The notes: a model not told the origin generated them from the sequence alone. A stretch of DNA of 36,804 nucleotides from Clostridia bacterium (GCA_017500745.1 JAFVYE010000067.1:1-36804), one strand, 5' to 3'. Numbered from the stretch's first letter, positions 4,095 to 35,808 are shown. Numbers and translations are program-made.

Positions 4095-5540
4095 TTATTG
4101 GGCTTCTCTGTTGAGATAATCAATGCTGAAAGCAAGACGGCGCATGCTTTCTTCTTTGCCAAGCACCACTGCCATTTCAACAGCGCCACCGGGGGTTGAG
4201 GGCTGACCTGTGAGTGCCACACGGACGCTGAACATAACTTGTCCACCCTTCATGCCGCCCGCTTCCGCAGAGGATTTCATACACTCTTTGAGTGCGTCCT
4301 CGGTCCAGTCGTCAAGGTTGCTCATTGCATCAAAAGCAACTTTAAGTGCTTGTTTTGCCACATTAAAGTCCACTTTCATCTTTTGATGCACGTACATATT
4401 GATGTCGTACTCGTCAAAGTCAACCAAGAAGTCAATCTTGTCGGGGATGTCAGAAAGCACGTCCACACGGGTTTGCATAAGACGGCTGATCTCGTAATCG
4501 TTGAACTTGCCACCTGCCTTGCTCTTCATGATATAGGGCAAGGAAACGGTGTAAAACTCCTCGGGAGTCATTGCCTTCAAGTACTCTCCGTTGAGCCAGC
4601 GCATCTTGGCTTCATCAAAGATTGCGGGGCTCTTTGAAAGGCCGTCAACGTCAAATTGCTCCACCATCTCATCAATGGTCATCTTCTCTTGGTTGGACTT
4701 TGGACACCAGCCGAGGAGAGCGATATAGTTGACAATTGCTTCGGGCAAATATCCCTTGGCAACAAAGTCCTCAAAGTTGGCATCGCCATATCTCTTTGAA
4801 AGCTTGCGCTGTGCATCCTTCATTATGGTTGTAAGGTGGATGTAGGTGGGGCGCTCCCAGCCAAATGCGTCATAAATCAAGTTGTACTTGGGGGTTGATG
4901 ACAAATACTCTATGCCACGCATAACGTGAGTGATGCCCATGAGATGATCGTCAACAACGTTGGCAAAGTTGTAGGTGGGAAGTCCGTCACTCTTGAGGAG
5001 AACGCCGTCCTCTATGTCCTCGCTGGCAACAGAAATCTCGCCAAAGACCAAGTCTGTGTATGATGACACAACGCCCTCGGGCACTTTTTGACGAATGACG
5101 TAGGGCTCGCCTGCTGCAACTCTTGCCTTTGCCTCTTCAAGAGGAATGTTGCGACAATGCTTGTCGTAGGTGTGTAGCCCGTTGTCGTCAACAATTGATT
5201 GAAGTCTTTCCTTGTCGCAGAAACAGTAATATGCTCCGCCAAGTTCAACCAACTTTTCGGCATATTCCTTGTAAAGTCCCATACGCTCGGTTTGGACGTA
5301 AGGGCCATAGCCACCGTCCTTGTCGGGGCCTTCATCGTAGCTCATGCCTGCAATTTTGAGGGTGCGATAGATTGCTTCAACTGCGCCTTCCACCTTTCTT
5401 TCTTGATCGGTGTCCTCAATGCGAAGGATAAAGGTTCCATTGTGCTTTCTTGCATACAAGTAGGTGTAAAGACCTGTGCGAAGGTTGCCGATGTGCATAA
5501 AGCCCGTGGGGGAGGGTGCAAATCTTGTTCTAACTGTCAT
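4095..5540 (-). CDS. gltX: Glutamate--tRNA ligase
   Basis: RFAPSPTGFMHIGNLRT (HIGH motif), KLSKR (KMSKS motif), and a typical GluRS length of 481 aa. Confidence 0.95.
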   Translation of the reverse strand: MTVRTRFAPSPTGFMHIGNLRTGLYTYLYARKHNGTFILRIEDTDQERKVEGAVEAIYRTLKIAGMSYDEGPDKDGGYGPYVQTERMGLYKEYAEKLVELGGAYYCFCDKERLQSIVDDNGLHTYDKHCRNIPLEEAKARVAAGEPYVIRQKVPEGVVSSYTDLVFGEISVASEDIEDGVLLKSDGLPTYNFANVVDDHLMGITHVMRGIEYLSSTPKYNLIYDAFGWERPTYIHLTTIMKDAQRKLSKRYGDANFEDFVAKGYLPEAIVNYIALLGWCPKSNQEKMTIDEMVEQFDVDGLSKSPAIFDEAKMRWLNGEYLKAMTPEEFYTVSLPYIMKSKAGGKFNDYEISRLMQTRVDVLSDIPDKIDFLVDFDEYDINMYVHQKMKVDFNVAKQALKVAFDAMSNLDDWTEDALKECMKSSAEAGGMKGGQVMFSVRVALTGQPSTPGGAVEMAVVLGKEESMRRLAFSIDYLNREAQ

Positions 5541-19469: not shown

Positions 19470-22204
19470 TTAGTTATTTTCTTTGAGGGCCTTTTTTTCT
19501 GCCTTACGCTTTTCAACAAAGTTGGTGACAACCTTTGACACTTCAACAAAGGGGATTACAGTTGCGCCAAGTGCCATTGCAATGAAGAATTCCTTTGCGT
19601 CAATTGCTGTAAAGTCAAATGCTGTGTTGAGGCCGGGGGTGTAGATGACAAGGACGGTTGCAAGCAATGAGAATGCAAATGCGCCCCACATAAACCAATT
19701 TTGCTTTTTGAGCATGCTCTTGCTGAAGATTGAGTGGTTGATTGATCTTGCGTTGAATGCGTGGAACATCTCTGTCATTGACAAGGTCAAGAAAGCCATT
19801 GTCATGCCGTGGCCTGTGTCGTGAGCAAATGCTTCAAAGGTCATGGGCTCCCCTGCAAGATAGTGTCCAATAAAGAATGATGCAAGAGTCAAAAGTCCAA
19901 TAAACACGCCTTGGATGATGATGTTGACCCCAACGCCACCTGCAAAGATGCCTTCCTTTTCATTTCTGGGAGCACGGCGCATAAGGTCTGCTTCTGCCGT
20001 TTCTGTGCCAAGTGCAAGTGCAGGGAAAGTGTCTGTGATGAGGTTGATCCAAAGCAGGTGCATGGGCTTCAAGAGAGTGAAGCCACACATTGTTGCAATA
20101 AACACAGAAACCACTTCTGCAAGGTTGGATGCAAGGAGGAATTGAATTGCTTTGCGGATGTTGTCGTAGATGCGTCTGCCCTCTCCAACTGCGGTGACGA
20201 TTGTTGCAAAGTTGTCATCTTGGAGCACCATGTCTGCTGCGCCCTTTGTGACGTCTGTGCCTGTGATGCCCATGCCAATGCCGATGTCTGCTGACTTGAT
20301 GGAAGGTGCGTCATTGACGCCGTCCCCTGTCATTGCAGTAATCATGCCACGCTTCTTCCAAGTGTTGACAATGCGGACCTTGTGTTCAGGTTGAACACGT
20401 GCATACACAGAAAACTCCACGATTCTTTCATAAAATTCCTCATCACTCATCTCTGCCATTTCTGCGCCTGTAATTGCTTGTGATGCGTCTTGGATGATGC
20501 CAAGTTGCTTTGCAATTGCCACAGCTGTGTCAATGTGGTCGCCTGTGATCATGACTGCACGGATGCCTGCTGTCTTACACTCTGCAATTGCTGCTTGAAC
20601 TTCGGGACGGACAGGGTCAATCATGCCTGTGAGGCCAAGGAAGATGAGGTCCTTTTCAATGTCTTCGGGATTGACACTATCAGGAATTGCGTTGAGGGGC
20701 TTGTATGCTGCAGCAAGGACACGAAGTGCTTCGTTTGCCATTGCCTTGTTTGCACCAAGGATGTCTGTTCTGATGTCATCTGTGAGTTCAACCACTTGAC
20801 CGTTGATCTTTGCGTGGGTGCAACACTTCAAAAGTTCATCGGGAGCGCCCTTTGTGAATTGAACGTATGCGCCGTTGCCGTCATCGTGGATGGTTGACAT
20901 ACGCTTGCGCATGCTGTCAAAAGGTGCTTCCGCCACACGAGGATAGGTTTTGTCAAGGTCGGTTTTGTTTTGATTTTCCTTGTATGCAAAGTTGACAAGA
21001 GCACACTCTGTGGGCTCGCCAACTGCGTCAAAGGTTTCGGGGTCAAGAGTTGCGTCACTTGCTTGTGCCATTGCTCTTGCAATGAGAGCAACGTCATCGC
21101 CATAGGTGTCAACAACGGTCATCTTGTTTTGAGTGAGGGTGCCTGTCTTGTCAGAGCAGATGATTTGGGTGCAACCCAAGGTTTCAACTGCAGTAAGACG
21201 TTTGACAACTGCTTTTTTCTTTGCCATCTTTGTCATGCCCATTGAAAGCACGATTGTGACAACGGTTGCAAGGCCCTCTGGGATTGCGGCAACTGCCAAC
21301 GACACAGCGATGATAAAGCTGTCAAGGATGATTTCAAGTGCGCTGTTGCCAACAAGATTGTTGCGTTCCATGATGAGCTTGAATGCAAAATGAACACACA
21401 AATGCCAAGGACTGCAAAGCTCAAAATCTTTGAAAGCTTGTCAAGCTTCTTTTGAAGGGGAGTTGTTTCCTCTTTGGTTTGTGCAAGGACGTCTGCAATT
21501 TTGCCCATTTCGGTTTGCATGCCTGTTGCAACAACAACTGCCTTTGCTCTGCCGTAGACAATGGTGCTTCCCATATAGACCATATTCTTTCTGTCGCCAA
21601 GGGGAACGTCTTTGCCATCCTCTGCTGTGAGAGTGTCAACTTCCTTCTCGCTGGGCACAGACTCTCCTGTCAAAGCTGCCTCTTCTGCCTTTAAGGATGC
21701 AGATTCAATAAGACGGCAGTCTGCAGGCACAGAGTCCCCTGCTTCAAGGATGACTATATCGCCAACAACCAAGTCCTCGTTTTTGATGTGCTTGATGACA
21801 CCATCACGGATGACTTTACACGTTGATGCGGTCATCTCTTTCAAGGCCTCAATTGCCTTTTCGGCTCTGCCCTCTTGCACAACGCCAAGAACTGCGTTCA
21901 AGAGAACAACACCAATGATGATGAAGAACTCTGCAAGCTCCGTTGTGTCAAAGTGTCCCTTGCCTGTCATCACGGGGATGAGTGTTGTGATGAGACTGAT
22001 GAGCGCTGCGATGATCAAAACGATGATCATAGGGTTGACAAGTTGCATGAAGAATCTTTGGACCATTGAGATCTTTTTGCCTTCTGCCAGCTTGTTTTTG
22101 CCGTTTTGTTCAAGGCGAGCGTCTGCTTCGGATTGTGACAATCCGTTGTCGCAGGACTTTACTTCTTCCAAGACAGCGTTGCTGTCAAAAAGATAGTGTT
22201 TCAT
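19470..22204 (-). pseudogene. P2-type (Ca2+/Mn2+-like) cation-transporting ATPase, interrupted by a 1-nt frameshift
   Basis: Two overlapping ORFs (22204-21233 and 21401-19470) together encode one ATPase: N-terminal cation-ATPase domain, PEGL (AAIPEGLATV), DKTGTLT, TGDHIDTA, GDGVNDAPS. The frames join sensibly (…GICVFI|FAFKLIMERNN…) only if one base is added in the A4/T4 run at 21387-21390. Confidence 0.85.
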
Positions 22205-23038: not shown

Positions 23039-24121
23039 TTATTGTTTGTTTATGATTTTTCCCTCTTTCACTTCAAAGAGTTTTGCCCCATCTCCGTCAA
23101 ACTCTGTGCAAGTGAGGATTGTTTGAACTCCCTTTGTGGCTTCAAGCAAGATATCACGCCGTGTTTTGTCAAGCTCACTCAACACGTCGTCAAGGAGAAG
23201 GACGGGGGTTTCGCCTGTTTCTTGCTTGTACATTTCAACCTCTCCAAGCTTCATTGCAAGAGCTATAGTGCGCTGTTGTCCTTGAGAGGCAAATCGCCTT
23301 GCGTCAATGCCGTCAATTTCAATCTTGATGTCGTCACGATGAGGGCCTACGGTGCTATATCCAAGCTCCTTATCCTTTGCCCTTGATGCCAAAAGTGCGT
23401 CCTCAAGATTGCGCCTTATATCCCCTTCTGTTTTGACTGCGGTTTCATATGACAGCATCAGATTTTCCTTGCCAGAGCTGATTTTTCTGTGGCTTTGGCT
23501 TGCAAACTTGTTGAGTTCATTGACGTACTCCATACGCTTGCGGATTATGGTTGCGCCGTGCTCGGCAAGCCCAATATCCCACACGTCAAGCATGTCGTCA
23601 AGATTGTCTGCGTGCTTGCTCTCCTTCAAAAGATTGTTCTTTTGCTTCAACGTCTTGTTGTATTTTTGCAATGCAGTAAAATAGCTCTTTTGTTGTTGAG
23701 ATAGCCCAACGTCAAGAAAGCCCCTTCTCTCTGCGGGAGATTCCTTTACAAGCTTGAGTTCATCCGGCGAGAAGAAAACCACCCCAAGCACACCAAGCAG
23801 TTCTCCTGCTCTTGTCACGGGGATTCCGTCAATTGCCACTTTCTTTTTGCCAACCTCATCTATGAGGAGCAATATTGTGTGTTTGCGGAATTTTTTTTCA
23901 ACAGTAAGTGCCACCTTTGCCCTTGATGCGCCCATGCGGATAAGCTCTTTATCCTTGGTTGTGCGAGGGCTTCTAAGCAATGAGCAAACGTAAACAGACT
24001 CAAGCATATTGGTCTTTCCGCTGGCGTTTTTTCCATAAAGAACGTTGAGCCCACCGTCAAAATTGACTTGTTGGCTCTCGTAATTGCGGAAATTTGAAAG
24101 TGTAAGACCGATGATTTTCAT
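23039..24121 (-). CDS. recF: DNA replication and repair protein RecF
   Basis: Walker A GKNASGKTNMLE at the N-terminus, SMC-like signature FASQGQQRT, Walker B LLLDDVLSELD. 360 aa. Confidence 0.9.
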   Translation of the reverse strand: MKIIGLTLSNFRNYESQQVNFDGGLNVLYGKNASGKTNMLESVYVCSLLRSPRTTKDKELIRMGASRAKVALTVEKKFRKHTILLLIDEVGKKKVAIDGIPVTRAGELLGVLGVVFFSPDELKLVKESPAERRGFLDVGLSQQQKSYFTALQKYNKTLKQKNNLLKESKHADNLDDMLDVWDIGLAEHGATIIRKRMEYVNELNKFASQSHRKISSGKENLMLSYETAVKTEGDIRRNLEDALLASRAKDKELGYSTVGPHRDDIKIEIDGIDARRFASQGQQRTIALAMKLGEVEMYKQETGETPVLLLDDVLSELDKTRRDILLEATKGVQTILTCTEFDGDGAKLFEVKEGKIINKQ

Positions 24122-24127
24122 AAGTTT

Positions 24128-24156
24128 ATTATATATTAAAAATGCCTGTTTTTCAA
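24128..24156 (-). promoter_or_regulatory. Sigma-A promoter of recF with leaderless geometry
   Basis: On the minus strand: TTGAAA (24156-24151), 17 nt, TATAAT (24133-24128), 6 nt, ATG at 24121. No SD. Confidence 0.6.
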
Positions 24157-24323
24157 CAAGTTATGCCATATTATTTTGCATATAAAAAGAGAGATTTTTT
24201 CATTGTTGAAAACATATCTTGCTTTGCAAGACAAAAGAAAACCATAATGTCTGATGACAATTAATGCCGTAGGCAATTCATGACACAAAGTGTCAATTCA
24301 TGCAATCTTTGATTGTAATTTAT

Positions 24324-24352
24324 AAAAAAAGCACTCAACTGAGTGCTTTTTT
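24324..24352 (-). terminator. Intrinsic terminator of dnaA
   Basis: AGCACTC (24330-24336), loop AACT, GAGTGCT (24341-24347), flanked by A7 and T6. It begins 4 nt after the dnaA stop. Confidence 0.75.
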
Positions 24353-24355
24353 ATA

Positions 24356-25729
24356 TTATCTGTTGAGGATCATGTTTTTGATGTCTGCAACAACAATCTT
24401 CATGCGCTTGTCTGTCTTGATCATTTCGCTGATCTTATCTCTTGCATGGATGATGGTTGTGTGATCTCTGCCACCAAACATTTGACCTATTGTCACAAGA
24501 GGCAGGCCAAGCATTTCGGTGATGAGATAGATTGCAATCATGCGGGGTTCAACAATGTTTTTGGTCTTTTTCTTTGAAAACACGTCGTTTTTGGTGATGT
24601 TGAAATATCTGCACACCGTGTCAATGATGTCACTTGCGTCAAGAGTGTCTGTTTTGACCTCAATGAAGTCTTGCAGGGCCTCTCTTGCAAGATCCGTTGT
24701 GTCAATGACGTGGTTGGTCAGTGAACTGAAAAAGATGATTTTGTTGAGGAGTCCTTCAAGCTCACGGATGTTTGAGGTGCAGTTTTCTGCAATGAACGTG
24801 GCCACCTCATCGCTCAAACGGAACTTCTCTTGTGCTGCTTTTGTGCGAAGGATTGCAATGCGAGTTTCGGTGTCGGGCACGTTGATGTCAACCGTAAGCC
24901 CCCAAGCAAAACGTGTGCGCAGACGCTCTTCCAACGTGACAAGTTCCTTGGGAGAACGGTCTGATGTCAAGATGATTTGTTTGTTGGCTTGATAGAGGTC
25001 GTTGAAGATGTGGAAAAGTGCCTCTTGTGTCTGCTCTCTCTTGGCAAGAAATTGGACGTCATCCACCATGAGCACGTCACATGAACGATATTTTTCACGG
25101 AATTGATTGCTCTCTGTGTTGCTACGCTTCATGCTCATCTGCACAAATTCATTGACCATCTGCTCGCTGTTGACGTATACAACCTTTGTCTTGGGTGACT
25201 CCTTGTAGAGATGGTTGCCAATGGCGTGAAGAAGGTGGGTTTTGCCAAGGCCTACTCCGCTGTAAATGAAAAGAGGATTATACTTTCCGCCGGGGTTTTC
25301 TGCCACAGTTTTGGCTGCCATAAGAGCATAGTTGTTGGACTTGCCCATGACAAATTTGTCAAAGGTGTATCTGTCCACAAAAGGATTTTTGACCTTGACT
25401 TCGGCGGTTTTCTTTTTGTTGTCAACGATGATGCCACCACCGGGGAGAAACTCTGTTTGTTTGTTGAGATACTCTGCCTTTTTGTCGGGAGTGATGATTT
25501 CAACTGCGTTGACCGCCTTGTTGAGAGATTTGACAACCTCTGTGATGGTGCCAAGATATCTTTCATCAATGGTGCGTTTTGAAGATGCAGTAAGCGTGAC
25601 GAGCACAAAGGTGTCGTCTACAAAGCAAAGTGGCTCAAGCTTGTCAATCCAAACTTCATAGCTTATTGCTTGCATTATTTTTGACAATTCATTTTTGGCA
25701 TCCAGCCAAAATTCTTCTTTTCCAATCAT
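24356..25729 (-). CDS. dnaA: Chromosomal replication initiator DnaA
   Basis: AAA+ domain (NPLFIYSGVGLGKTHLLHAIG, VLMVDDVQFL, sensor motifs) and the C-terminal DNA-binding signature GGRDHTTIIHA. 457 aa. Confidence 0.97.
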   Translation of the reverse strand: MIGKEEFWLDAKNELSKIMQAISYEVWIDKLEPLCFVDDTFVLVTLTASSKRTIDERYLGTITEVVKSLNKAVNAVEIITPDKKAEYLNKQTEFLPGGGIIVDNKKKTAEVKVKNPFVDRYTFDKFVMGKSNNYALMAAKTVAENPGGKYNPLFIYSGVGLGKTHLLHAIGNHLYKESPKTKVVYVNSEQMVNEFVQMSMKRSNTESNQFREKYRSCDVLMVDDVQFLAKREQTQEALFHIFNDLYQANKQIILTSDRSPKELVTLEERLRTRFAWGLTVDINVPDTETRIAILRTKAAQEKFRLSDEVATFIAENCTSNIRELEGLLNKIIFFSSLTNHVIDTTDLAREALQDFIEVKTDTLDASDIIDTVCRYFNITKNDVFSKKKTKNIVEPRMIAIYLITEMLGLPLVTIGQMFGGRDHTTIIHARDKISEMIKTDKRMKIVVADIKNMILNR

Positions 25730-25736
25730 GGTTGAG

Positions 25737-25765
25737 ATTATAACTTATCCACATTTTTTGTGCAA
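25737..25765 (-). promoter_or_regulatory. dnaA promoter with a perfect DnaA box in the spacer and leaderless geometry
   Basis: On the minus strand: TTGCAC (25765-25760), 17-nt spacer containing TGTGGATAA (plus-strand TTATCCACA at 25745-25753), TATAAT (25742-25737), 7 nt, ATG at 25729. No SD. Confidence 0.65.
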
Positions 25766-25843
25766 CATACTTTTGAAAAATAAATATAAATGACTATATA
25801 TTGCGACCAAATATTTTTTGCCCCCAATTTTCTACAAAATTCT

Positions 25844-26446
25844 CTATCTTATTGGAGCATACTGGCCGGCATTCAGCCCCGTGTTTACAATCATAAAAAT
25901 GCCCATGGGGACAAAGATGATTAGGCAAACCGTGTTGACGACGTTTGCAATTTTTTCAAAGTTTTTGACATATCTTTGGGCCACAATCATCAAAAGCAAT
26001 CCAATGCATCCACCAAAGAAGTTGCATGCAAAATCCGTGCCGTCACATCCTCCGGTGCCCGTGTATAGCTGAGCCATCTCAAAGCAAATTGAAGTCACCA
26101 TAAACACCGCAACAGACACAATCACAACAAGGGAATATTTCATCTTTTTGAACATAAAAAGATATAAATATATCCCCATAGGGATATAAATCACCACGTT
26201 CAAAAGGTGGTCAAGGTTGAATTTATACGTGCCCTCTTGCACGGATTTTATCAAGGAGTAAAAAGGAATCCAATTGTTGCCCACTCTGCTTTCAAGGGGA
26301 AGTTTGAGCATATATTCTCTCAACTCGTACAGCCAATCCGAATTGAATTTGAGCCCAACAACCCAAACAAGACACCACAAATAAGTGACAAATATTGCCA
26401 CCAAAATTTTGAGATTGAGATTGTCTTGTTTGAATGGGTTTTTCAT
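25844..26446 (-). CDS. VanZ-like integral membrane protein
   Basis: 200 aa, multi-pass membrane protein. The NWIPFYS, NVVIYIPMGIY, CFEMAQ and DGTDFACNFFGG pattern fits the VanZ family as I remember it. Confidence 0.6.
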   Translation of the reverse strand: MKNPFKQDNLNLKILVAIFVTYLWCLVWVVGLKFNSDWLYELREYMLKLPLESRVGNNWIPFYSLIKSVQEGTYKFNLDHLLNVVIYIPMGIYLYLFMFKKMKYSLVVIVSVAVFMVTSICFEMAQLYTGTGGCDGTDFACNFFGGCIGLLLMIVAQRYVKNFEKIANVVNTVCLIIFVPMGIFMIVNTGLNAGQYAPIR

Positions 26447-26448
26447 CT

Positions 26449-26479
26449 TAAAAAATATAGCACACGCTGTGGTGTGCTA
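26449..26479 (-). terminator. Intrinsic terminator of dnaN
   Basis: TAGCACAC (26458-26465), 6-nt loop, GTGTGCTA (26472-26479). The minus strand then reads TATTTTTT. Confidence 0.7.
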
Positions 26480-26500
26480 TACCTATATTTGCATTTTTGT

Positions 26501-27601
26501 TTAGCCAATAACTCTGAGAGGAAGGATGAGATAGAGCCAGTTGTCTTGTTCGCCCTTGATAATGCCGGGGGCTGTTGATGAAGTGAAGTTCAATGTGACA
26601 AAAGGATCTTGGATTGCCTTCATACACTCGCTGATATACTTGCTGTTGAAGCCGATTGTAAGGTCCTTGCCTTTGAGTCCGATGGTGACTTTTTCATTGA
26701 TTTCGCCCTCTTCGCTGTGTGCGTTCAATGAAATTGAATCCTCTTTTATTTCCATCTTGACGTATGCTTTCTTTTCAGAGCGATTGATGAGGGCAACTCT
26801 TTCAATGCTGTTTTCAAATTGCTTTTTGTCAATGGTCACTTCGGTTGTAAAGAGGTCGGGGATGATCTTTTCATAGTTGATATAGTCCTCTGCGATGAGG
26901 CGTGAAACCATCTTTGTGTGGAAGAGGTCAACCATGATATAGCTTCTGTCAATGTAGACGGTCAAAGTTTCGTTTTCGTCATCAATGAGTGAGCAGAGCT
27001 CGTTCATGCTCTTTGCGGGCACAACAAGTTTGTCAATGATGCCGTTGTTTTGAATGGGCATTCTTGAAAGTGCAAGACGATAGCCGTCTGAAGCAACCCC
27101 TTCAAGCTCTGTTTCTTTGATGTTGAGGCAGATGCCACGGAGTGAAGGACGTGCTTCATCCATTGCAACGTTGAATTTGACCTTGCTGATGATTTCTTTA
27201 AGGTCTTTTTTGAGGATGATGAAGGAGTGCTCCTTTTCAACCTCCTTGAACACGGGATATTCATCTGCGTTGTAGCAATTGATAAACACCTCGCTGTCAA
27301 GATATTTCACAGACAATTTGTTTTGTGCGGTGCCGTCAAGCTCAATTTCTTCATCGCCAATACGCTTTGCGTAGTCTGCAAAGAGTTTGCCAGGGACAAC
27401 CACTTCGCCCTCAATGAGAACTTCTGCATTGACCTTCTTTTCAATGGCAAGTTCCAAGTCGGTTGCAAAAAGGGTGATGACGTCACCGATTGCGGTGATT
27501 TTGACACATTCCAAAATTGGATTGCTTCTCTTAATAGGCAATGCCTTTACAACTTTTTGAAGAGCATCTGCAAGCTCGTTTCCGTTCAAAATAACTTTCA
27601 T
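26501..27601 (-). CDS. dnaN: DNA polymerase III beta sliding clamp
   Basis: 366 aa, three-domain clamp pattern (LFATDLELAIE, GVASDGYRLA, C-terminal LILPLRV). Confidence 0.95.
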   Translation of the reverse strand: MKVILNGNELADALQKVVKALPIKRSNPILECVKITAIGDVITLFATDLELAIEKKVNAEVLIEGEVVVPGKLFADYAKRIGDEEIELDGTAQNKLSVKYLDSEVFINCYNADEYPVFKEVEKEHSFIILKKDLKEIISKVKFNVAMDEARPSLRGICLNIKETELEGVASDGYRLALSRMPIQNNGIIDKLVVPAKSMNELCSLIDDENETLTVYIDRSYIMVDLFHTKMVSRLIAEDYINYEKIIPDLFTTEVTIDKKQFENSIERVALINRSEKKAYVKMEIKEDSISLNAHSEEGEINEKVTIGLKGKDLTIGFNSKYISECMKAIQDPFVTLNFTSSTAPGIIKGEQDNWLYLILPLRVIG

Positions 27602-27979
27602 TTTTTCGCCTGTTTATTTTAATATTTTATTTTTATTTATTATACCATATATAAGCAATGTTGACAAGTGGAAAAGTCCAAAACTCCCCAACAAAAGCCA
27701 AAAAAGTGTTGTTTATCCCCATCAAAAACATCAGCAAAATAAGCAAAAACACAAGTGTGTTATGTTGACAACTTTTTGTGGATTTCCCTATTTTGTCCCC
27801 AAGTTTAAAAGGGTTGTTCACAACGTCCTATCTATAGGGCGACAATGACCAATATATTGCGACAAAATTTGCAAGTCAAAAAATAATAAAAAAAAAAGAT
27901 GTGAAACAAATTGTGAAACTTATTGCGATTGAATTTTTTTTGTGTTATTTTATTTATATACCCCCAAAGGAGAATGGCT
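27602..27979. other. Candidate oriC-type region between divergent dnaN and parB
   Basis: AT-rich block 27611-27656. DnaA-box-like 9-mers: TTATCCCCA (27713-27721, 1 mismatch), TGTGGATTT (27777-27785, 2 mismatches), TTGTTCACA (27814-27822, 2 mismatches). A10 tract at 27889-27898. No perfect box. Confidence 0.3.
27639..27667 (-). promoter_or_regulatory. Sigma-A promoter of dnaN
   Basis: On the minus strand: TTGTCA (27667-27662), 17 nt, TATAAT (27644-27639). This gives an AT-rich leader of about 30 nt. Confidence 0.55.
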
Positions 27980-28858
27980 ATGGCAGAAAAAGGCGCAAGC
28001 AAGTTTAATGCTCTTTACACAGACCATGAGGAAAACGTTAAGGTTGAAATTGCAGGAGTCAACGCAATTGACGTAGACATCACTCTCATTGACAGAAACC
28101 CTGCTCAACCTCGTAAGACTTTCAACGAAGAGTCCCTTCGTGAAATGGCAACTTCTGTTGCAACCTACGGTGTTTTGCAACCTCTCCTCGTCACAGAGGA
28201 AAAGGGCAGATATCTTATCATCGCAGGCGAACGCCGTTTTAGAGCTGCATATATGGCAGGGCTCAAAAAAGTGCCCGTAATCGTGAGAGAACTCACAAGC
28301 CAACAAATTGCAGAAATCTCTCTCATTGAAAACTTGCACCGTGAGGACCTCAACGCAATTGAAGCTGCAGAGGGCATGCGTGAGCTTATGGAAAACCACA
28401 ATCTCACCCAAGAAGGTGTGGCAGGTCGCATTGGCAAATCACGCCCCTACGTCACCAACACACTTCGCCTCCTTCAACTGCCCAAGGAAGTCACAGACAT
28501 GGTCAAGGAAGGACGCCTCTCTCCCGGCCATGCAAGAGCGCTCATCTCCATTGACGACAAAGAGTATCTCATCCAACTTGCAAAGCAGGCCTGTGACAGT
28601 CACCTTTCAGTCCGTGATCTTGAAACAAAAGTTCGTCTTTACTTCACAAGAAAAACAATCCCAGTCGGCCCCAGAAAACAACCTCTCCCCATTGAGCTTA
28701 AAGAGATGGTTGGCGATATGAAGCGTGTGTTTGCAACAAAGGTTAAACTTCTTGGCAACGAAAACAAAGGACGCATCTGCATTGACTATTTCAACAAGGA
28801 CGATCTTGACAGAATCCACGAAATCATTCAACGCCTCAAATACGAAGAAAAACTCTAA
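27980..28858 (+). CDS. parB: ParB/Spo0J-family partition protein
   Basis: AGGAGA (27968-27973) lies 6 nt before the ATG at 27980. ParB motifs present: LQPLLV, GERRFRAA, IENLHREDLN, and the HTH LTQEGVAGRIGKSRPYVTNTLRLL. It could formally be a Noc paralog. Confidence 0.85.
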   Translation: MAEKGASKFNALYTDHEENVKVEIAGVNAIDVDITLIDRNPAQPRKTFNEESLREMATSVATYGVLQPLLVTEEKGRYLIIAGERRFRAAYMAGLKKVPVIVRELTSQQIAEISLIENLHREDLNAIEAAEGMRELMENHNLTQEGVAGRIGKSRPYVTNTLRLLQLPKEVTDMVKEGRLSPGHARALISIDDKEYLIQLAKQACDSHLSVRDLETKVRLYFTRKTIPVGPRKQPLPIELKEMVGDMKRVFATKVKLLGNENKGRICIDYFNKDDLDRIHEIIQRLKYEEKL

Positions 28859-31250: not shown

Positions 31251-31973
31251 ATGAGAATTGGCATAATCACCGCAATGACAGATGAAACAATGCCCCTTTA
31301 TGAAAAGCTGGGCAAGTCAAAAGGCACAGGCAAGGTTGCAGGTGCAACAGTCCATAAATTTGAAATTGACGGAAATGAAATTTATCTTGCAAAGTCAGGA
31401 GTAGGCGAAATTCGTGCTGCCCTCACCGCTCAAATGCTTGTGGATATCTTTGAGGTTGAGGTGCTTCTCAATTTTGGCTTTGTGGGCTCTTTGGATAGCC
31501 GTTTTGACGTGGGCGATATGGTGCTTGTCGGTGCCGTTGTCCATTATCAATTTGACACCACGGAGATTGACAACGTGGCAGTTGGTCAATATGACGGCAA
31601 AGATACTCCATATTTTCACACAGACACCACACTCATTGCCAAGGTTCAAAACCAACTCGGTGGCATATTGCCCGTTGTAATTGACGCATCTGGCGACAAA
31701 TTTGTGGCATCAAGTGAGGAGAAAAATTATCTCCGCACCTTCGGTGCTCATGTATGTGAAATGGAATGCGCCGGTCTTGTCATTGCATCAGAAAGAAACA
31801 ACGTGCCCCTTTTGTCCATCAAAGTCATATCTGACAAAGCGGACGAAAGTGCCAATGTGTCCTTTGGCGAAGTTGTAAAACGTGGACTTACAAAATATGA
31901 GCAAATTTTCCCTGCCGTGCTCAAAGCAATCACAGGAGAAAATAGCACTCCCCTGCCACCTGTCAAACTTTGA
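31251..31973 (+). CDS. mtnN: 5'-methylthioadenosine/S-adenosylhomocysteine nucleosidase
   Basis: GGAGG (31241-31245) precedes the ATG at 31251. MRIGIITAM, KSGVGE, SGDKF, CEMECAG and VISDKADE match PNP_UDP_1/MtnN landmarks. Confidence 0.8.
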   Translation: MRIGIITAMTDETMPLYEKLGKSKGTGKVAGATVHKFEIDGNEIYLAKSGVGEIRAALTAQMLVDIFEVEVLLNFGFVGSLDSRFDVGDMVLVGAVVHYQFDTTEIDNVAVGQYDGKDTPYFHTDTTLIAKVQNQLGGILPVVIDASGDKFVASSEEKNYLRTFGAHVCEMECAGLVIASERNNVPLLSIKVISDKADESANVSFGEVVKRGLTKYEQIFPAVLKAITGENSTPLPPVKL

Positions 31974-32070
31974 CAAAAAGCAACCAACTGCACAGCTTGA
32001 CACAAAGGATTGAAAAAAACAGCAACCAAAAACCAACAAAACATAAACAGACAAATATAAACAAAAATTT

Positions 32071-32095
32071 TGACTATATACAAAGTATATAGTCA
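32071..32095 (+). promoter_or_regulatory. Perfect 11-bp inverted repeat immediately upstream of luxS
   Basis: TGACTATATAC-AAA-GTATATAGTCA ends 10 nt before the luxS ATG. No SD is visible. Confidence 0.5.
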
Positions 32096-32105
32096 AACTA
32101 CAATT

Positions 32106-32534
32106 ATGGAAAGAATCACATCATTCAACATTGATCACAACGTGCTGACTCCAGGCATATACCTCAACCGTGTGGATGGCAACGTGTTTACATATGACCT
32201 TCGTTTCAAAGCACCAAACAAAGGGGATTATCTCCACACAGCAGGCATGCACACCGTGGAACATCTCTTTGCAACGGTTGTCCGCAACAGCCCCTACAAA
32301 GACAAGGTTGTTTATTTTGGACCTATGGGATGCAGAACTGGTTTTTATCTCCTACTCTTTGACACCCCTGACATCAACGATGCAAAGCGCATCGTCACGG
32401 AGTGTGTTGAAAAATGTCTTGAACTCAACTCAATCCCCGGATCCAAAAAGATTGAGTGTGGCAACTACCGCTCACACAACCTTGCAGATGCCAAAAAGGA
32501 GCTGACAGCATATCTTGGAGTCCTCAAAAGATAA
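32106..32534 (+). CDS. luxS: S-ribosylhomocysteine lyase
   Basis: The metal-binding HTVEH motif and the GPMGCRTGFY block typical of LuxS. The start is trimmed to MERITSF. Confidence 0.9.
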   Translation: MERITSFNIDHNVLTPGIYLNRVDGNVFTYDLRFKAPNKGDYLHTAGMHTVEHLFATVVRNSPYKDKVVYFGPMGCRTGFYLLLFDTPDINDAKRIVTECVEKCLELNSIPGSKKIECGNYRSHNLADAKKELTAYLGVLKR

Positions 32535-32600
32535 CAATCCAAACAAAGACAAATCAAACAATTTTCTATAAATTGCAAAAACAAAAATATAGAAAAATCA

Positions 32601-32626
32601 AAAGCCGAGCAAAAGCTCGGTTTTAT
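32601..32626 (+). terminator. Intrinsic terminator after luxS
   Basis: AGCCGAGC (32603-32610), loop AAAA, GCTCGG (32615-32620), then TTTTATTATT. Confidence 0.7.
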
Positions 32627-32630
32627 TATT

Positions 32631-32663
32631 GCCAAAACATCGCCAAAACATTGCCAAAATCAC
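32631..32663 (+). repeat. Tandem array A: three copies of an 11-nt unit, GCCAAAACAT(N)
   Basis: Copies start at 32631, 32642 and 32653. Confidence 0.8.
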
Positions 32664-32664
32664 A

Positions 32665-32777
32665 CCCCCTAAAATACTAACTCCCCAAAATACTATTCCC
32701 CTAAAATACTATTCCCCTAAAATACTAACTCCCTATAATACTAATTCCCCCAAATACTAACTCCCCAAAATACAATC
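32665..32777 (+). repeat. Tandem array B: seven copies of a 15-18 nt unit, CCCC(T)AAAATACTAAYT
   Basis: Units start at 32665, 32683, 32698, 32714, 32731, 32747 and 32763. The line 32701-32760 contains no G at all. Confidence 0.9.
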
Positions 32778-32844
32778 AAACTCTCTGTTGTATAAATCAG
32801 CACTCTACCACACAAATAGACCACACCTTTGCTACGTCACGTAA

Positions 32845-33150
32845 CCTACAGCCATAACATACTCCCACAACCCCTAAATACCCTATCAGCCATAAACACC
32901 CTATCATCTATAAACACTCTATTAGCTATAACACGCTCTATCAGCTATACACACTTTCTCAGTCCTAAACACTCTCACAGTTCTACATACTCCAACAACC
33001 CCTAATACCCTCTCAGCCACAACACGCTCTCAGCTACAACACGCTCTCAGCCATAACACGTTCACAACCCCTAAAACCCTATCAACCATAACACACTCTA
33101 TCAGCTAATAAACCACTCTCACAGCTCTACATACTCCCACAACTCACCCC
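32845..33150 (+). repeat. Tandem array C: about 13 degenerate copies of a roughly 17-nt unit, CTMTCAGCYAYAACACG, interspersed with CCCACAACCCCTAAATA-type elements
   Basis: Example run: CTCTCAGCCACAACACG CTCTCAGCTACAACACG CTCTCAGCCATAACACG at 33010-33060. The interspersed element recurs near 32863, 32991, 33063 and 33135, which indicates a higher-order repeat. Confidence 0.8.
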
Positions 33151-33174
33151 GCCCCACAACCATTAGTGCCCCAC

Positions 33175-33254
33175 AACTCAACGCACTCACGCAACTCAAC
33201 GCAACTGAACGCACTCACGCAACTCAACGCACTCACGCAACTCAACGAATTCAC
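33175..33254 (+). repeat. Tandem array D: about four copies of an 18-nt unit, AACTCAACGC+ACTCACGC
   Basis: Alternating 10-nt and 8-nt subunits can be read directly at 33175-33248. Confidence 0.85.
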
Positions 33255-33485
33255 ATAATCCCTAACAACAACCAAAAACAACAAAATCTACTATTCTAAT
33301 TGATCCCACCACTTTCAACGTATAATCAAATTCATTTTCTATAAAACAATAAAAACAAATATATAAAAAAAACAAAATAGAAACCATAAATAACAATCAA
33401 GCATTTATAAATACGGTCATAAGAATAAACAAAAGTGCAAATGTAAAATTTTCTATTCAAGAGGAAACCAAACAAACAAAATAAA

Positions 33486-33501
33486 TGTTTTACGTGAAAC
33501 A
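33486..33501. promoter_or_regulatory. parS-like site (1 mismatch)
   Basis: TGTTTTACGTGAAACA compared with the canonical TGTTNCACGTGAAACA. Confidence 0.7.
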
Positions 33502-33900: not shown

Positions 33901-33916
33901 GGATTCACGAGAAACA
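33901..33916. promoter_or_regulatory. Degenerate parS-like site (3 mismatches)
   Basis: GGATTCACGAGAAACA. Confidence 0.3.
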
Positions 33917-33950
33917 TCTCCGAAGACCTTAAAATCGTCCAAAAAATATA

Positions 33951-33966
33951 TGTTTCACGTGGAACA
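33951..33966. promoter_or_regulatory. parS site, exact match to the consensus
   Basis: TGTTTCACGTGGAACA is the exact reverse complement of TGTTCCACGTGAAACA. Confidence 0.85.
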
Positions 33967-33983
33967 ATGGTCGGATGGGTGTG

Positions 33984-33999
33984 TGTTTCATGTGAAACA
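33984..33999. promoter_or_regulatory. parS-like site (1 mismatch)
   Basis: TGTTTCATGTGAAACA, 18 bp from the perfect site. Confidence 0.7.
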
Positions 34000-34015
34000 A
34001 AAACGCCTTAAAAGT

Positions 34016-34067
34016 GCCCAAAAATAGCCAAAAACAGCCATTTTTGATGGTTTTTGGGCTATTTTTG
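34016..34067. repeat. Imperfect inverted repeat at the A-rich to T-rich switch point
   Basis: CAAAAATAGCCAAAAAC (34019-34035) against the reverse complement of GTTTTTGGGCTATTTTTG (34050-34067). There is one indel and a 14-nt spacer. Confidence 0.7.
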
Positions 34068-34221
34068 ACCTATGAAAAATAATTTTTCGGCTTTTCCTCA
34101 TCTAATTTTTTGGCCTCAAAAATCGGTCTTTCCCCATTGAAATTTGGGGGTCTTTTGTTTCGCAAAAATACTAATAAAAATTATTAGTTTCACAATTATT
34201 TTATCTTATAATAAAAAAACG

Positions 34222-34285
34222 GTTTTTTAGGCGTTTTTTAGGCATATTTTAGGTGTTTATTAGGTTTTTTTGGGCTGTTTTCAGC
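34222..34285 (+). repeat. Tandem array E: 5-6 copies of an 11-nt unit, GTTTTTTAGGC, roughly the reverse complement of array A
   Basis: Units start at 34222, 34233, 34244, 34255, 34266 and 34276. Confidence 0.75.
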
Positions 34286-34517: not shown

Positions 34518-34546
34518 TTGATATTTTGAGGGTTGTTTGATATAAT
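34518..34546 (+). promoter_or_regulatory. Near-consensus sigma-A promoter
   Basis: TTGATA (34518-34523), 17 nt, TG-extended TATAAT (34541-34546). It lies about 185 nt upstream of the kinase ATG. Confidence 0.6.
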
Positions 34547-34640
34547 CAAGCCGGTGTCACATAAAACAATGGCTTTGTCCATGTAAATTTTGGCTGCTTT
34601 TGCCAATGATAAATGTGGTAAAAAGACAGATTGTTTTGTG

Positions 34641-35176: not shown

Positions 35177-35274
35177 AGATATATTTAACCGCAGAAAATT
35201 ATACGCTACCATTTTGAGCTTAAAATCTATCATTAAATTATTGCGTTCACTTATTGTGGCGCACAGGACTGCAT

Positions 35275-35808
35275 ATGTTTGTTTGGGTTGGAATTGACGT
35301 AGACAGCCAATATGGCGAAATTAAAGACGTTGTAAAACGAGTTGAAAACGAAGTGGGCATAGACCACAGCATTTTTACGTTGCCTTGGCACGTGTCTCTC
35401 AAAATCTCTTTTAAAGTGGATGAAAGGGATCTTGAGGGAATTGAGGGCACCATCACAGACATTTACAATGGCGTAGAGCCCTTTGAAATCGCCGTAAAGG
35501 GCATTGAGCACCATGACAACATCTGCTGGGTCAGAATGTGTGAGAACCATCGTTTGAACGCATTGAGCGAGGTTTTAAACCACACTCTAAGGGACAAGCA
35601 CAACATTCCTCTCCATGAATATGACCTTGACTTTATGTTTCATACAACGCTTTTTATGGATGATGACTTGGACAAGGTGGCAAGGTGCTACGACATGGTC
35701 AAGGACGCACCAGTGCCTGACAAGCTTGTTGCAAAAAGGTTTGTCATTGGTTTGTCGGAGGGCGGAGCACTTGGAACTTACAAGATTTTTAAAACAATTG
35801 AAAAATGA
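35275..35808 (+). CDS. 2H phosphoesterase superfamily protein (LigT/cyclic phosphodiesterase-like)
   Basis: Two H-x-T/S-x motifs are present: WHVSLK and FHTTLF, about 85 aa apart. AGGA lies 6 nt before the ATG at 35275. Confidence 0.7.
   Translation: MFVWVGIDVDSQYGEIKDVVKRVENEVGIDHSIFTLPWHVSLKISFKVDERDLEGIEGTITDIYNGVEPFEIAVKGIEHHDNICWVRMCENHRLNALSEVLNHTLRDKHNIPLHEYDLDFMFHTTLFMDDDLDKVARCYDMVKDAPVPDKLVAKRFVIGLSEGGALGTYKIFKTIEK

Follow-up and report, generated by a model that had tools for sequence, protein, structure and literature searches.

The DNA analysed here is a 36,804-nt contig (GCA_017500745.1, JAFVYE010000067.1:1-36804; hereafter the window) of a metagenome-assembled genome (MAG) of an uncultured Clostridia bacterium, and our subject is a cluster of G-poor tandem repeats that it carries downstream of luxS. 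In the window, the genes recF, dnaA, vanZ and dnaN, all on the minus strand, are followed by parB, rsmG, an MFS transporter gene, pfs and luxS. Downstream of luxS lies a 2.2-kb gene-free island, which begins with a hairpin terminator and continues with the repeat arrays. The arrays sit between this terminator and a parS cluster, ~6 kb from dnaA, dnaN and parB, and their gene neighbours encode LuxS, a small kinase-like protein and a 2'-5' RNA ligase-like protein. They thus lie on the flank of a putative origin-proximal centromere island (Table 1).

Table 1. Features of the luxS-parS island and its surroundings, in window coordinates.
Feature	Coordinates	Strand	Remarks
dnaN-parB spacer, most likely oriC	27602..27922		7 DnaA-box-like sites (<=2 mismatches), AT-rich stretch
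Gene for ParB-family protein, presumed parS binder	27923..28858	+	Pfam ParB_N, HTH_ParB; TIGR00180 188.9 bits (cutoff 58.45)
pfs/mtnN	31251-31973		Upstream of luxS
luxS	32106..32534	+	Pfam LuxS 159 bits; S-ribosylhomocysteine lyase in the NCBI MAG record
Uninterrupted stretch with G <10%	32601..33460	+	A 0.36-0.47, C 0.25-0.37; low G kept across species
Hairpin terminator	32601..32625	both (predicted)	Stem CCGAGC/GCTCGG, 4-nt loop; from terminator scan
11-nt repeat GCCAAAACATC	32631..32665	+	3 copies here, 2 in conspecific strains; from Tandem Repeats Finder and unit parse
Array B, 7 units of 15-17 nt CCCCTAAAATACTAAYT	32666..32778	+	48-nt higher order; strain-variable
Unique B-C spacer	32779..32844	+	Holds ACCACACAAATAGACCAC at 32807-32824, single-copy here
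Array C, ~13 units of 17-20 nt	32845..33133	+	Two super-units
C-D junction	33134..33173	+	Third super-unit head, decayed to CCACAAC repeats, running into array D
Array D	33174..33255	+	10-nt X CAACTCAACG and 8-nt Y CACTCACG, order XYXXYXYXY'; 18-nt XY period x3.9
parS site 1	33486..33501		TGTTTTACGTGAAACA; 1 mismatch to consensus; kept in relatives
parS cluster	33901..33999		Degenerate site 33901 (3 mismatches), parS2 33951-33966, parS3 33984-33999 (1 mismatch each)
Imperfect dyad, phased A-tracts (left) / T-tracts (right)	34000..34075		Centre ~34037-34040; AT and GC skew switch sign
Conserved non-coding block	34076..34200	+	GAAAAATAATTTTTCG ... CCATTGAAATTT ... TGTTTCGCAAAAATACTAATAAAA ... 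GTTTCAC; alignment of six genomes
11-nt T-tract repeat GTTTTTTAGGC x5.5	34222..34281	+	Mirrors GCCAAAA repeats on the left

Tandem Repeats Finder (TRF) resolved the arrays into an 11-nt repeat (x2.6, 32631-32659), a 16-nt repeat with a 48-nt higher order (x6.7, 32666-32773), 18-nt repeats (x5.6 and x2.5, 32875-32992), a 17-nt repeat (x3.0, 33010-33060) and an 18/28-nt repeat (x3.9/2.6, 33174-33247). Autocorrelation gave a lag of 16 for array B (z 9.2), lags of 18 and 144 for array C (z 5.6 and 5.4) and a lag of 18 for array D (z 5.9). With periods of 16, 17/18 and 18 nt, the two analyses bear out the first-pass annotation of this DNA, which had described seven B, thirteen C and four D units with periods of about 16-18 nt. 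Matches to the B, C and D units are confined to the arrays in the whole window, where shuffled sequences gave an expectation of 0.02-0.15. The two super-units of array C (32862-32989 and 32990-33133) align end to end except for one extra unit, and each runs from a head CTCCCACAACCCCTAAATAC through several TATCAGCYATAA units to a tail CTCTCACAGYTCTACATA, so that the array forms a higher-order repeat of 128-144 nt. Nested higher orders, which are typical of satellite evolution, are seen in all three arrays: 16 to 48 nt in B, 18 to 36/37 to 128-144 nt in C, and 10+8 to 18/28 nt in D. The longest open reading frames (ORFs) within the region are 58, 46 and 43 aa, in agreement with the earlier statement that none reaches 60 aa, and the stretch is likely untranslated. 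Coding repeats were ruled out, since stops occur in all six frames and periods of 16 and 17 nt are not multiples of 3.

The families proved to be related to each other. Of the six copies of CCCCTAA in the 36.8 kb, three lie in B units and three at the heads of C super-units (CCCCTAAATACC, CCCCTAATACC and CCCCTAAAACC); the extended form CCCCTAA(A)TAC is common to B and these heads, and the B consensus also has a match at 33068, within C. CCACAAC ties the C heads to the C-D junction, and array D grows from this head motif. The first-pass annotation had called the three families unrelated and had taken their common period as a sign of a structural or spacing constraint, and neither view is supported. 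Not only do the families share motifs and grade into each other, but units range from 15 to 17 nt within B and from 17 to 20 nt within C, conspecific strains differ freely in copy number, and the corresponding position in sister species holds unrelated units whose periods are 20-21 or 31-37 nt (see below). Because the families share motifs and their unit lengths vary, the common period reflects common descent rather than an external ruler.

The arrays are also extreme in base composition. The 660 nt from 32641 to 33300 hold 242 A, 245 C, 36 G and 137 T, and no G is present from 32700 to 32759, confirming a hand count of about 36 G and one 60-nt line without any. Over 600 nt, G amounts to 5.5%, the lowest value in the ~0.89 Mb examined (the window and the comparison contigs and loci fetched for this analysis, which carry L-numbers such as L001 and L063 here). 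The second-lowest 600 nt in this set is the syntenic stretch of L007. In 78-nt windows the array region has a median C/(G+1) of 5.5, which is unreached elsewhere in the 36.8 kb on either strand. The other intergenic regions of the window are unskewed, and the bias was found again only in the pfs-luxS spacer, ruling out A/C-rich spacers as a genome-wide habit. Across several species the luxS-sense strand of the stretch is C- and A-rich, with 5-9% G.

To compare alleles within the species, conspecific contigs were retrieved by cluster and exact-protein look-ups; all comparison data are short-read metagenome assemblies. These contigs share 97-98.5% identity with the window in pfs, luxS and parB-MFS and 91-97.5% in the non-repeat parts of the island. 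The repeat families and their order are identical in all of them, and copy numbers differ independently, giving seven alleles. Array B (16 nt) has 6.7 copies in the window, 5.5 in L066, 4.7 in L065, 3.9 in L071 and ~2 in L063, and array C has ~13 units in the window, ~12 in L065, 8.5 in L071, ~7 in L066 and 1-2 in L063. Array D (18 nt) has 3.9 copies in the window, 3.4 in L063, 3.2 in L065 and ~1 in L066 and L071, its arrangement differing in some strains. The 18-nt ACCACACAAATAGACCAC, present once in the window, is tandem in other strains (1.9 to 3.2 copies). L065 and L069 differ over 960 columns only by one exact 38-nt unit. Most gaps in the comparison of alleles match a unit in size or exceed it (11, 16-19, 32, 36-38, 126 and 177 nt), with some gaps of 1-9 nt from gapped alignment. 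Among these alleles parS1 lies 673 to 957 nt from the luxS stop, with G at 6.0-6.7% throughout.

The same alleles were recovered in up to four independent assemblies (L071, L072, L075 and L077; L063 and L064; the window and L001), indicating that the copy-number differences are real and not assembly noise. In L001, array B is identical to that of the window and the contig breaks where C starts, so that the C and D copy numbers of the window rest on a single short-read assembly. According to the first-pass annotation, copy number varying freely between isolates, with no conserved period or unit, would speak for neutral minisatellite expansion; such variation is largely what the alleles display, with the caveat that units and periods are kept within the species. 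In the pfs-luxS spacer of L066, an N run at 4731-4830 marks a scaffold gap, and the apparent length of 259 nt there is not a real polymorphism.

Between species the units themselves are exchanged. Two sister lineages (93% Pfs identity) have unrelated tandem units at the same position, with G at 5.2-8.9%: L080 and L084 carry 31-32-nt and 37-nt units (x2.8 versus x3.9), and L088 and L090 carry 20-21-nt units (x3.7 versus x2.8 plus x3.2). In L007 (79% LuxS identity), ~0.9 kb has 6-9% G, and neither tandem repeats nor cryptic periodicity was found in it. L002 and L013 (90-91% LuxS identity) have two small inserted genes, no arrays and only G-poor patches, and L004, L009 and L010 have the parS cluster and lack the G-poor left flank. 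A search of L007, L002 and L004 for homologues of the window's G-poor stretch yielded only short compositional matches. The order of luxS, hairpin, G-poor stretch and parS1 is nevertheless preserved in at least four species though the sequence turns over, and a sign change of AT and GC skew adjoins the parS cluster in six genomes. In L004 a strong asymmetry lies on the right flank as a mirror image (C 0.08, G 0.38 on the plus strand).

Several further observations concern the same interval. The region between luxS and parS1 is an insertion hot spot, holding the two small genes (one minus, one plus) in L002 (10510-11330) and L013 and ~4 kb of inserted genes in L004 (10465-14550). L080 (5832-5940) and L084 have an extra A-rich 11/22-nt repeat (CAAAAGCAAGT and similar) at +43 to +141 from the luxS stop, before the terminator, and its copies also differ between the two contigs (x3.8 versus x9.3). 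In the distant relatives L005 (10713-11013) and L006 (7220-7393), a convergent gene with coding repeats lies directly 3' of luxS; the ends of these contigs, considered as possible breaks in the arrays, fall instead in the unrelated 69-nt (23-aa) coding repeats of this gene. A 247-aa ORF in the G-poor stretch of L007 was dismissed as an artefact of few stop codons, and it spans a parS site. The sole match of a 25-mer around parS2 in a metagenome scan was an unrelated contig (L060).

These data suggest that the arrays are probably a cluster of strain-variable minisatellites, that is, variable-number tandem repeats (VNTRs), made by slippage or unequal recombination. Related C/A-rich units of ~16-18 nt would be gained and lost whole, singly or several at once, likely by replication slippage or unequal recombination between direct repeats, and the shared period would be inherited as the families derive from one another. 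The units would have no unit-specific or spacing-specific function; what the locus would retain is its composition rather than its repeats, the composition being held by selection or by a local strand-biased process. The locus has the attributes of a VNTR, namely head-to-tail units of 10-100 nt, polymorphism between strains, whole-unit steps and a non-coding location.

A number of points weigh against this interpretation. Unit sequences, order and periods are retained within the species, which could reflect function instead of recent common ancestry. Short-read metagenome assemblies can collapse repeats, and many contigs break inside the arrays (L001, L064, L067, L070, L073 and L076). Moreover, neutral minisatellites alone do not explain why G stays persistently low while units are replaced. 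A polarised count of single-nucleotide polymorphisms (SNPs) in the alignable island showed no clear signal of strand-biased mutation. We consider Rho loading and strand-biased mutation, both compatible with VNTRs, as two live explanations of the G-poverty.

The first of these is a tentative possibility, in which the RNA past the luxS hairpin would serve as a Rho-loading pad: C-rich, G-poor and unstructured over 600-900 nt, it would be an ideal Rho utilization (rut) site. Read-through from pfs-luxS would be halted by Rho ahead of the ParB-parS complex, RNA ended by Rho may be trimmed back to the hairpin as its 3' end, and with selection on composition only, repeats could appear and disappear freely. 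According to published criteria, a rut site shows C>G and C at regular spacing within a 78-nt window (PMC6407284; RhoTermPredict), and rut sites of Bacillus subtilis are pyrimidine-rich, G-poor and unstructured, with PNPase trimming the transcripts (PMC12350095). A rut site calls for at least 70-80 nt of C>G with spaced C; the stretch has this, and its RNA is predicted to lack stable structure. In addition to the median C/(G+1) of 5.5 in 78-nt windows, C/G is ~6, 96 matches to a six-C pattern spaced 11-13 nt were counted, and YC dimers reach 18.9 per 100 nt in the region compared to 11.3 across the window. Minimum free energy is predicted at -0.044 kcal/mol per nt, the background value being -0.28 +/- 0.027. 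The preserved order from luxS through hairpin and G-poor stretch to parS1 is also consistent with such a pad. An unstructured, C-rich and G-poor transcript 3' of luxS had been suggested in the first-pass annotation; this reading holds up on composition, the RNA being predicted to be nearly free of structure and the G-poverty being conserved across species. However, a canonical intrinsic terminator lies directly upstream of the arrays, and the stretch is about ten times the length that a rut site needs. In L007 the G-poor stretch runs beyond parS1, and the mirror skew beyond the parS cluster of L004, where the neighbouring gene faces away, is not explained by shielding from incoming transcription. 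No rho gene was found in the window or the fetched loci, and a genome-wide search for rho was not made.

A local strand-biased mutation process is rather unlikely as the cause of the composition. In this case, the strand running 5' to 3' away from ~34040 would often be single-stranded, whether displaced by outward transcription or R-loops or serving as a lagging-strand template, and would undergo C to T and A to G deamination; the opposite strand would turn A/C-rich and G/T-poor, and the repeats would be neutral passengers. In agreement with the model, plus-strand frequencies on the left flank are A 0.36-0.43, C 0.27-0.37, G 0.06 and T 0.21, and the plus strand of the right flank is T-rich or G-rich and C-poor, as in L004. 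The predicted four-base pattern is thus found on both flanks, with the sign change beside the parS cluster in six genomes, and the repeat-free G-poor stretch of L007 and the unskewed intergenic regions elsewhere in the window are in line with it. On the other hand, among singleton SNPs of five strains, G>A about equalled C>T on the left and no clear asymmetry appeared on the right (4-11 events, arrays left out). The island has about as many DnaA boxes as expected by chance, with the likely oriC 6 kb off. No outward promoter was found, the sole strong promoter-like site lying at 34518-34546, and the skew of about -0.6 is far above ordinary replication skew.

Either idea would suit an element defined by composition only, which we regard as a doubtful but conceivable description of the luxS-parS spacer. 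Such a sequence-independent element, G-poor on the strand reading toward parS and mirrored on the opposite side in some genomes, could act as a Rho-loading insulator that keeps transcription off the centromere, or through outward single-strand exposure (R-loops, initiation-like events) from the bent centre. With only composition constrained, tandem repeats would be born and lost freely.

An accessory centromere or iteron-like array, in which each unit would bind a protein and form a second nucleoprotein complex beside parS, is very unlikely, although tandem direct repeats of 16-18 nt do adjoin the centromere and units are well kept within the species (B units retain CCCC and AAATACTA). Copy numbers range from ~2 to 7 in B, ~1-2 to 13 in C and ~1 to 4 in D among strains, the units are unrelated in sister species and missing in other species, and unit length is irregular and out of helical phase. 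The units occur nowhere else in the 36.8 kb, leaving no operator copy, and no candidate DNA-binding gene is adjacent; neither this pairing of cognate gene and operator copy nor unit conservation among related replicons, the marks of iterons and repeat centromeres, was found. Searches with blastn against plasmids and phages gave no match to the repeats, and among viral contigs units C and D had none and unit B a single-copy chance match (L059). The iteron reading offered earlier therefore fails on units that are not conserved beyond the species, a single location in the window and the absence of plasmid, phage and viral matches. A mobile-element origin was likewise rejected on the blastn results and the chance nature of the L059 match.

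Least probable of all, to the point of being hardly credible, is non-B DNA or minus-strand RNA, that is, a long-loop G-quadruplex or i-motif at B, or a G/U-rich non-coding RNA with GGGGA repeats ending at a two-way terminator: the minus strand of B does have seven G3-5 runs, the ViennaRNA G-quadruplex model gives a four-tetrad structure in B (-17.5 versus -12.1 kcal/mol without), and the hairpin at 32605-32620 scores as a minus-strand terminator, but the G-quadruplex potential once proposed for this strand finds no motif with loops of <=7 or <=12 nt, only some with 15-nt loops in B and at the C-D junction, C and D are without regular G-runs, strains with different B copy numbers differ in their G-run count, minus-strand RNA is predicted to be less stably folded than background, the sole minus-strand promoter-like site is weak (9/12 matches), and Rfam has nothing at or near threshold in the region. 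A known RNA was ruled out on the same Rfam search, which gave no hit at the gathering score and only chance-level matches at E<=1.

The arrays, probably VNTRs, occupy a spacer whose two borders are conserved. On the luxS side, the hairpin ends 5 nt ahead of the first repeat and lies between an A-tract and a T-tract, which is predicted to make it usable on both strands. Its stem is conserved in strains and sister species, with a compensatory replacement in L002. On the far side lie the parS sites. The parS consensus is a 16-bp palindrome, TGTTNCACGTGAAACA (PMC7022226), and three sites with one mismatch each lie within 515 bp and are conserved in relatives, with no further parS in the window. 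The island thus shows the attributes of a chromosomal parS centromere, including the 16-bp palindrome, clustering near oriC and the presence of a ParB gene. The parB gene is solitary, with no parA in the window, and its product scores best with the Noc model, though under the cutoff (220 versus 315 bits).

The left A-tracts of the dyad next to the parS cluster are phased A5-6 runs, found at the same place in L002, L004, L007, L010 and L013. The skew polarity at ~34040 fits an origin or divergent transcription, and DnaA boxes are not enriched there. The conserved block beyond the dyad is common to genomes as far as 79% LuxS identity and includes the parS half-site-like words TGTTTCGC and GTTTCAC; a related word, CCATGTAAATTT, reappears rightward, at 34581 in the window and in three copies in L007. 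DnaA-box-like sites number 2.18 per 100 bp, an eight-fold enrichment, in the dnaN-parB spacer and 0.25-0.42 per 100 bp, about chance, in the island, which was rejected as oriC on this ground. Both dnaA and dnaN score above their NCBIfam cutoffs. The minus-strand order dnaN, vanZ, dnaA, recF (23039-27601) is unusual in having dnaN upstream of dnaA, and is found in all conspecific and sister contigs.

In four genomes the luxS-parS island is ~20-fold enriched in another motif, (T)TTTTCTAT / ATAGAAAA(A). This motif occurs in 4-9 copies per island in six genomes, in both orientations and with T at -1 in 35 of 36 copies, and is neither a DnaA box nor a parS site. In the window it was located at 32562-32597, 33335, 33378, 33449, 33641 and 25828, and it is also present in the islands of L002, L004, L007, L010 and L013, often as inverted pairs such as TTTTCTATA-N18-TATAGAAAA directly after the luxS stop. 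Just 5' of the luxS start, a 13-bp perfect inverted repeat, TTTGACTATATAC-NNN-GTATATAGTCAAA (32069-32097), is kept in conspecific strains and both sister species, with a varying 3-nt centre (AAA, TTT or TAT); an operator and an RNA hairpin are possible roles. Elsewhere in the window, a P-type cation ATPase (19470-22204, minus strand) appears split into two ORFs overlapping by ~170 nt (N-part 21233-22204, C-part 19470-21401), which could reflect a frameshift, a pseudogene or an assembly error. A 184-aa version of the gene at 35254-35808, whose start codon differs from that of the called gene, had no exact protein match.

As strain-variable sequences, the arrays offer a marker with multiple alleles for typing strains of an uncultured ruminant-gut Clostridia species, and they account for assembly breaks after luxS. 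Unit turnover is complete between sister species, yet 0.5-0.9 kb stays at 5-9% G beside a conserved parS island, which would mean either selection on composition alone or strong local strand-biased mutation. If Rho loading holds, the locus would exemplify how a centromere can be kept clear of transcription; if single-strand exposure holds, it would mark an unrecognised activity beside parS sites.

The island shares clustered sites near dnaA/dnaN and a ParB gene with known origin-proximal parS clusters, such as those of B. subtilis (eight of ten sites near ori) and Pseudomonas aeruginosa (a four-site cluster) (PMC7022226, PMC4368675). Different from these clusters, it is a dedicated 2.2-kb gene-free stretch in which phased A-tracts and a local skew inversion accompany the sites, and the arrays are not parS. 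With Rho rut regions the stretch has in common that it is C-rich, G-poor and unstructured with spaced C and lies 3' of a gene, far past the published C/G>1; it is, however, about ten times longer and sits behind a canonical intrinsic terminator. Plasmid iterons bind Rep, and parC and sopC repeats bind centromere proteins. Like iterons and the repeat centromeres R1 parC, F sopC and pBtoxis tubC, the arrays are short direct repeats in a replication/partition region, but they lack a cognate binder gene, a conserved copy number or unit and regular spacing, and no plasmid similarity was found. In animal mitochondrial DNA, strand asymmetry is expected from deamination of the exposed partner strand, and immunoglobulin switch regions are R-loop-prone tandem repeats with a G-rich non-template strand. 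The A/C-rich, G-poor light strand of the former and the tandem repeats with skewed strands of the latter resemble the present locus, and the likeness is one of resemblance only.

The closest counterparts are the intergenic VNTR or minisatellite loci of bacteria, of the type used in multiple-locus VNTR analysis (MLVA), which are likewise non-coding, head-to-tail repeats of 10-40 nt, variable between strains in whole-unit steps and organised in higher-order units. Compared to ordinary VNTRs, the luxS-parS locus packs four to five families into ~620 nt, has unrelated families at the same position in sister species, and holds every family to an extreme composition (G 5-9%), whereas we know of no ordinary VNTRs that share one extreme base composition. 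The locus behaves like an ordinary VNTR, but in a setting beside a chromosomal centromere where base composition is unusually constrained.

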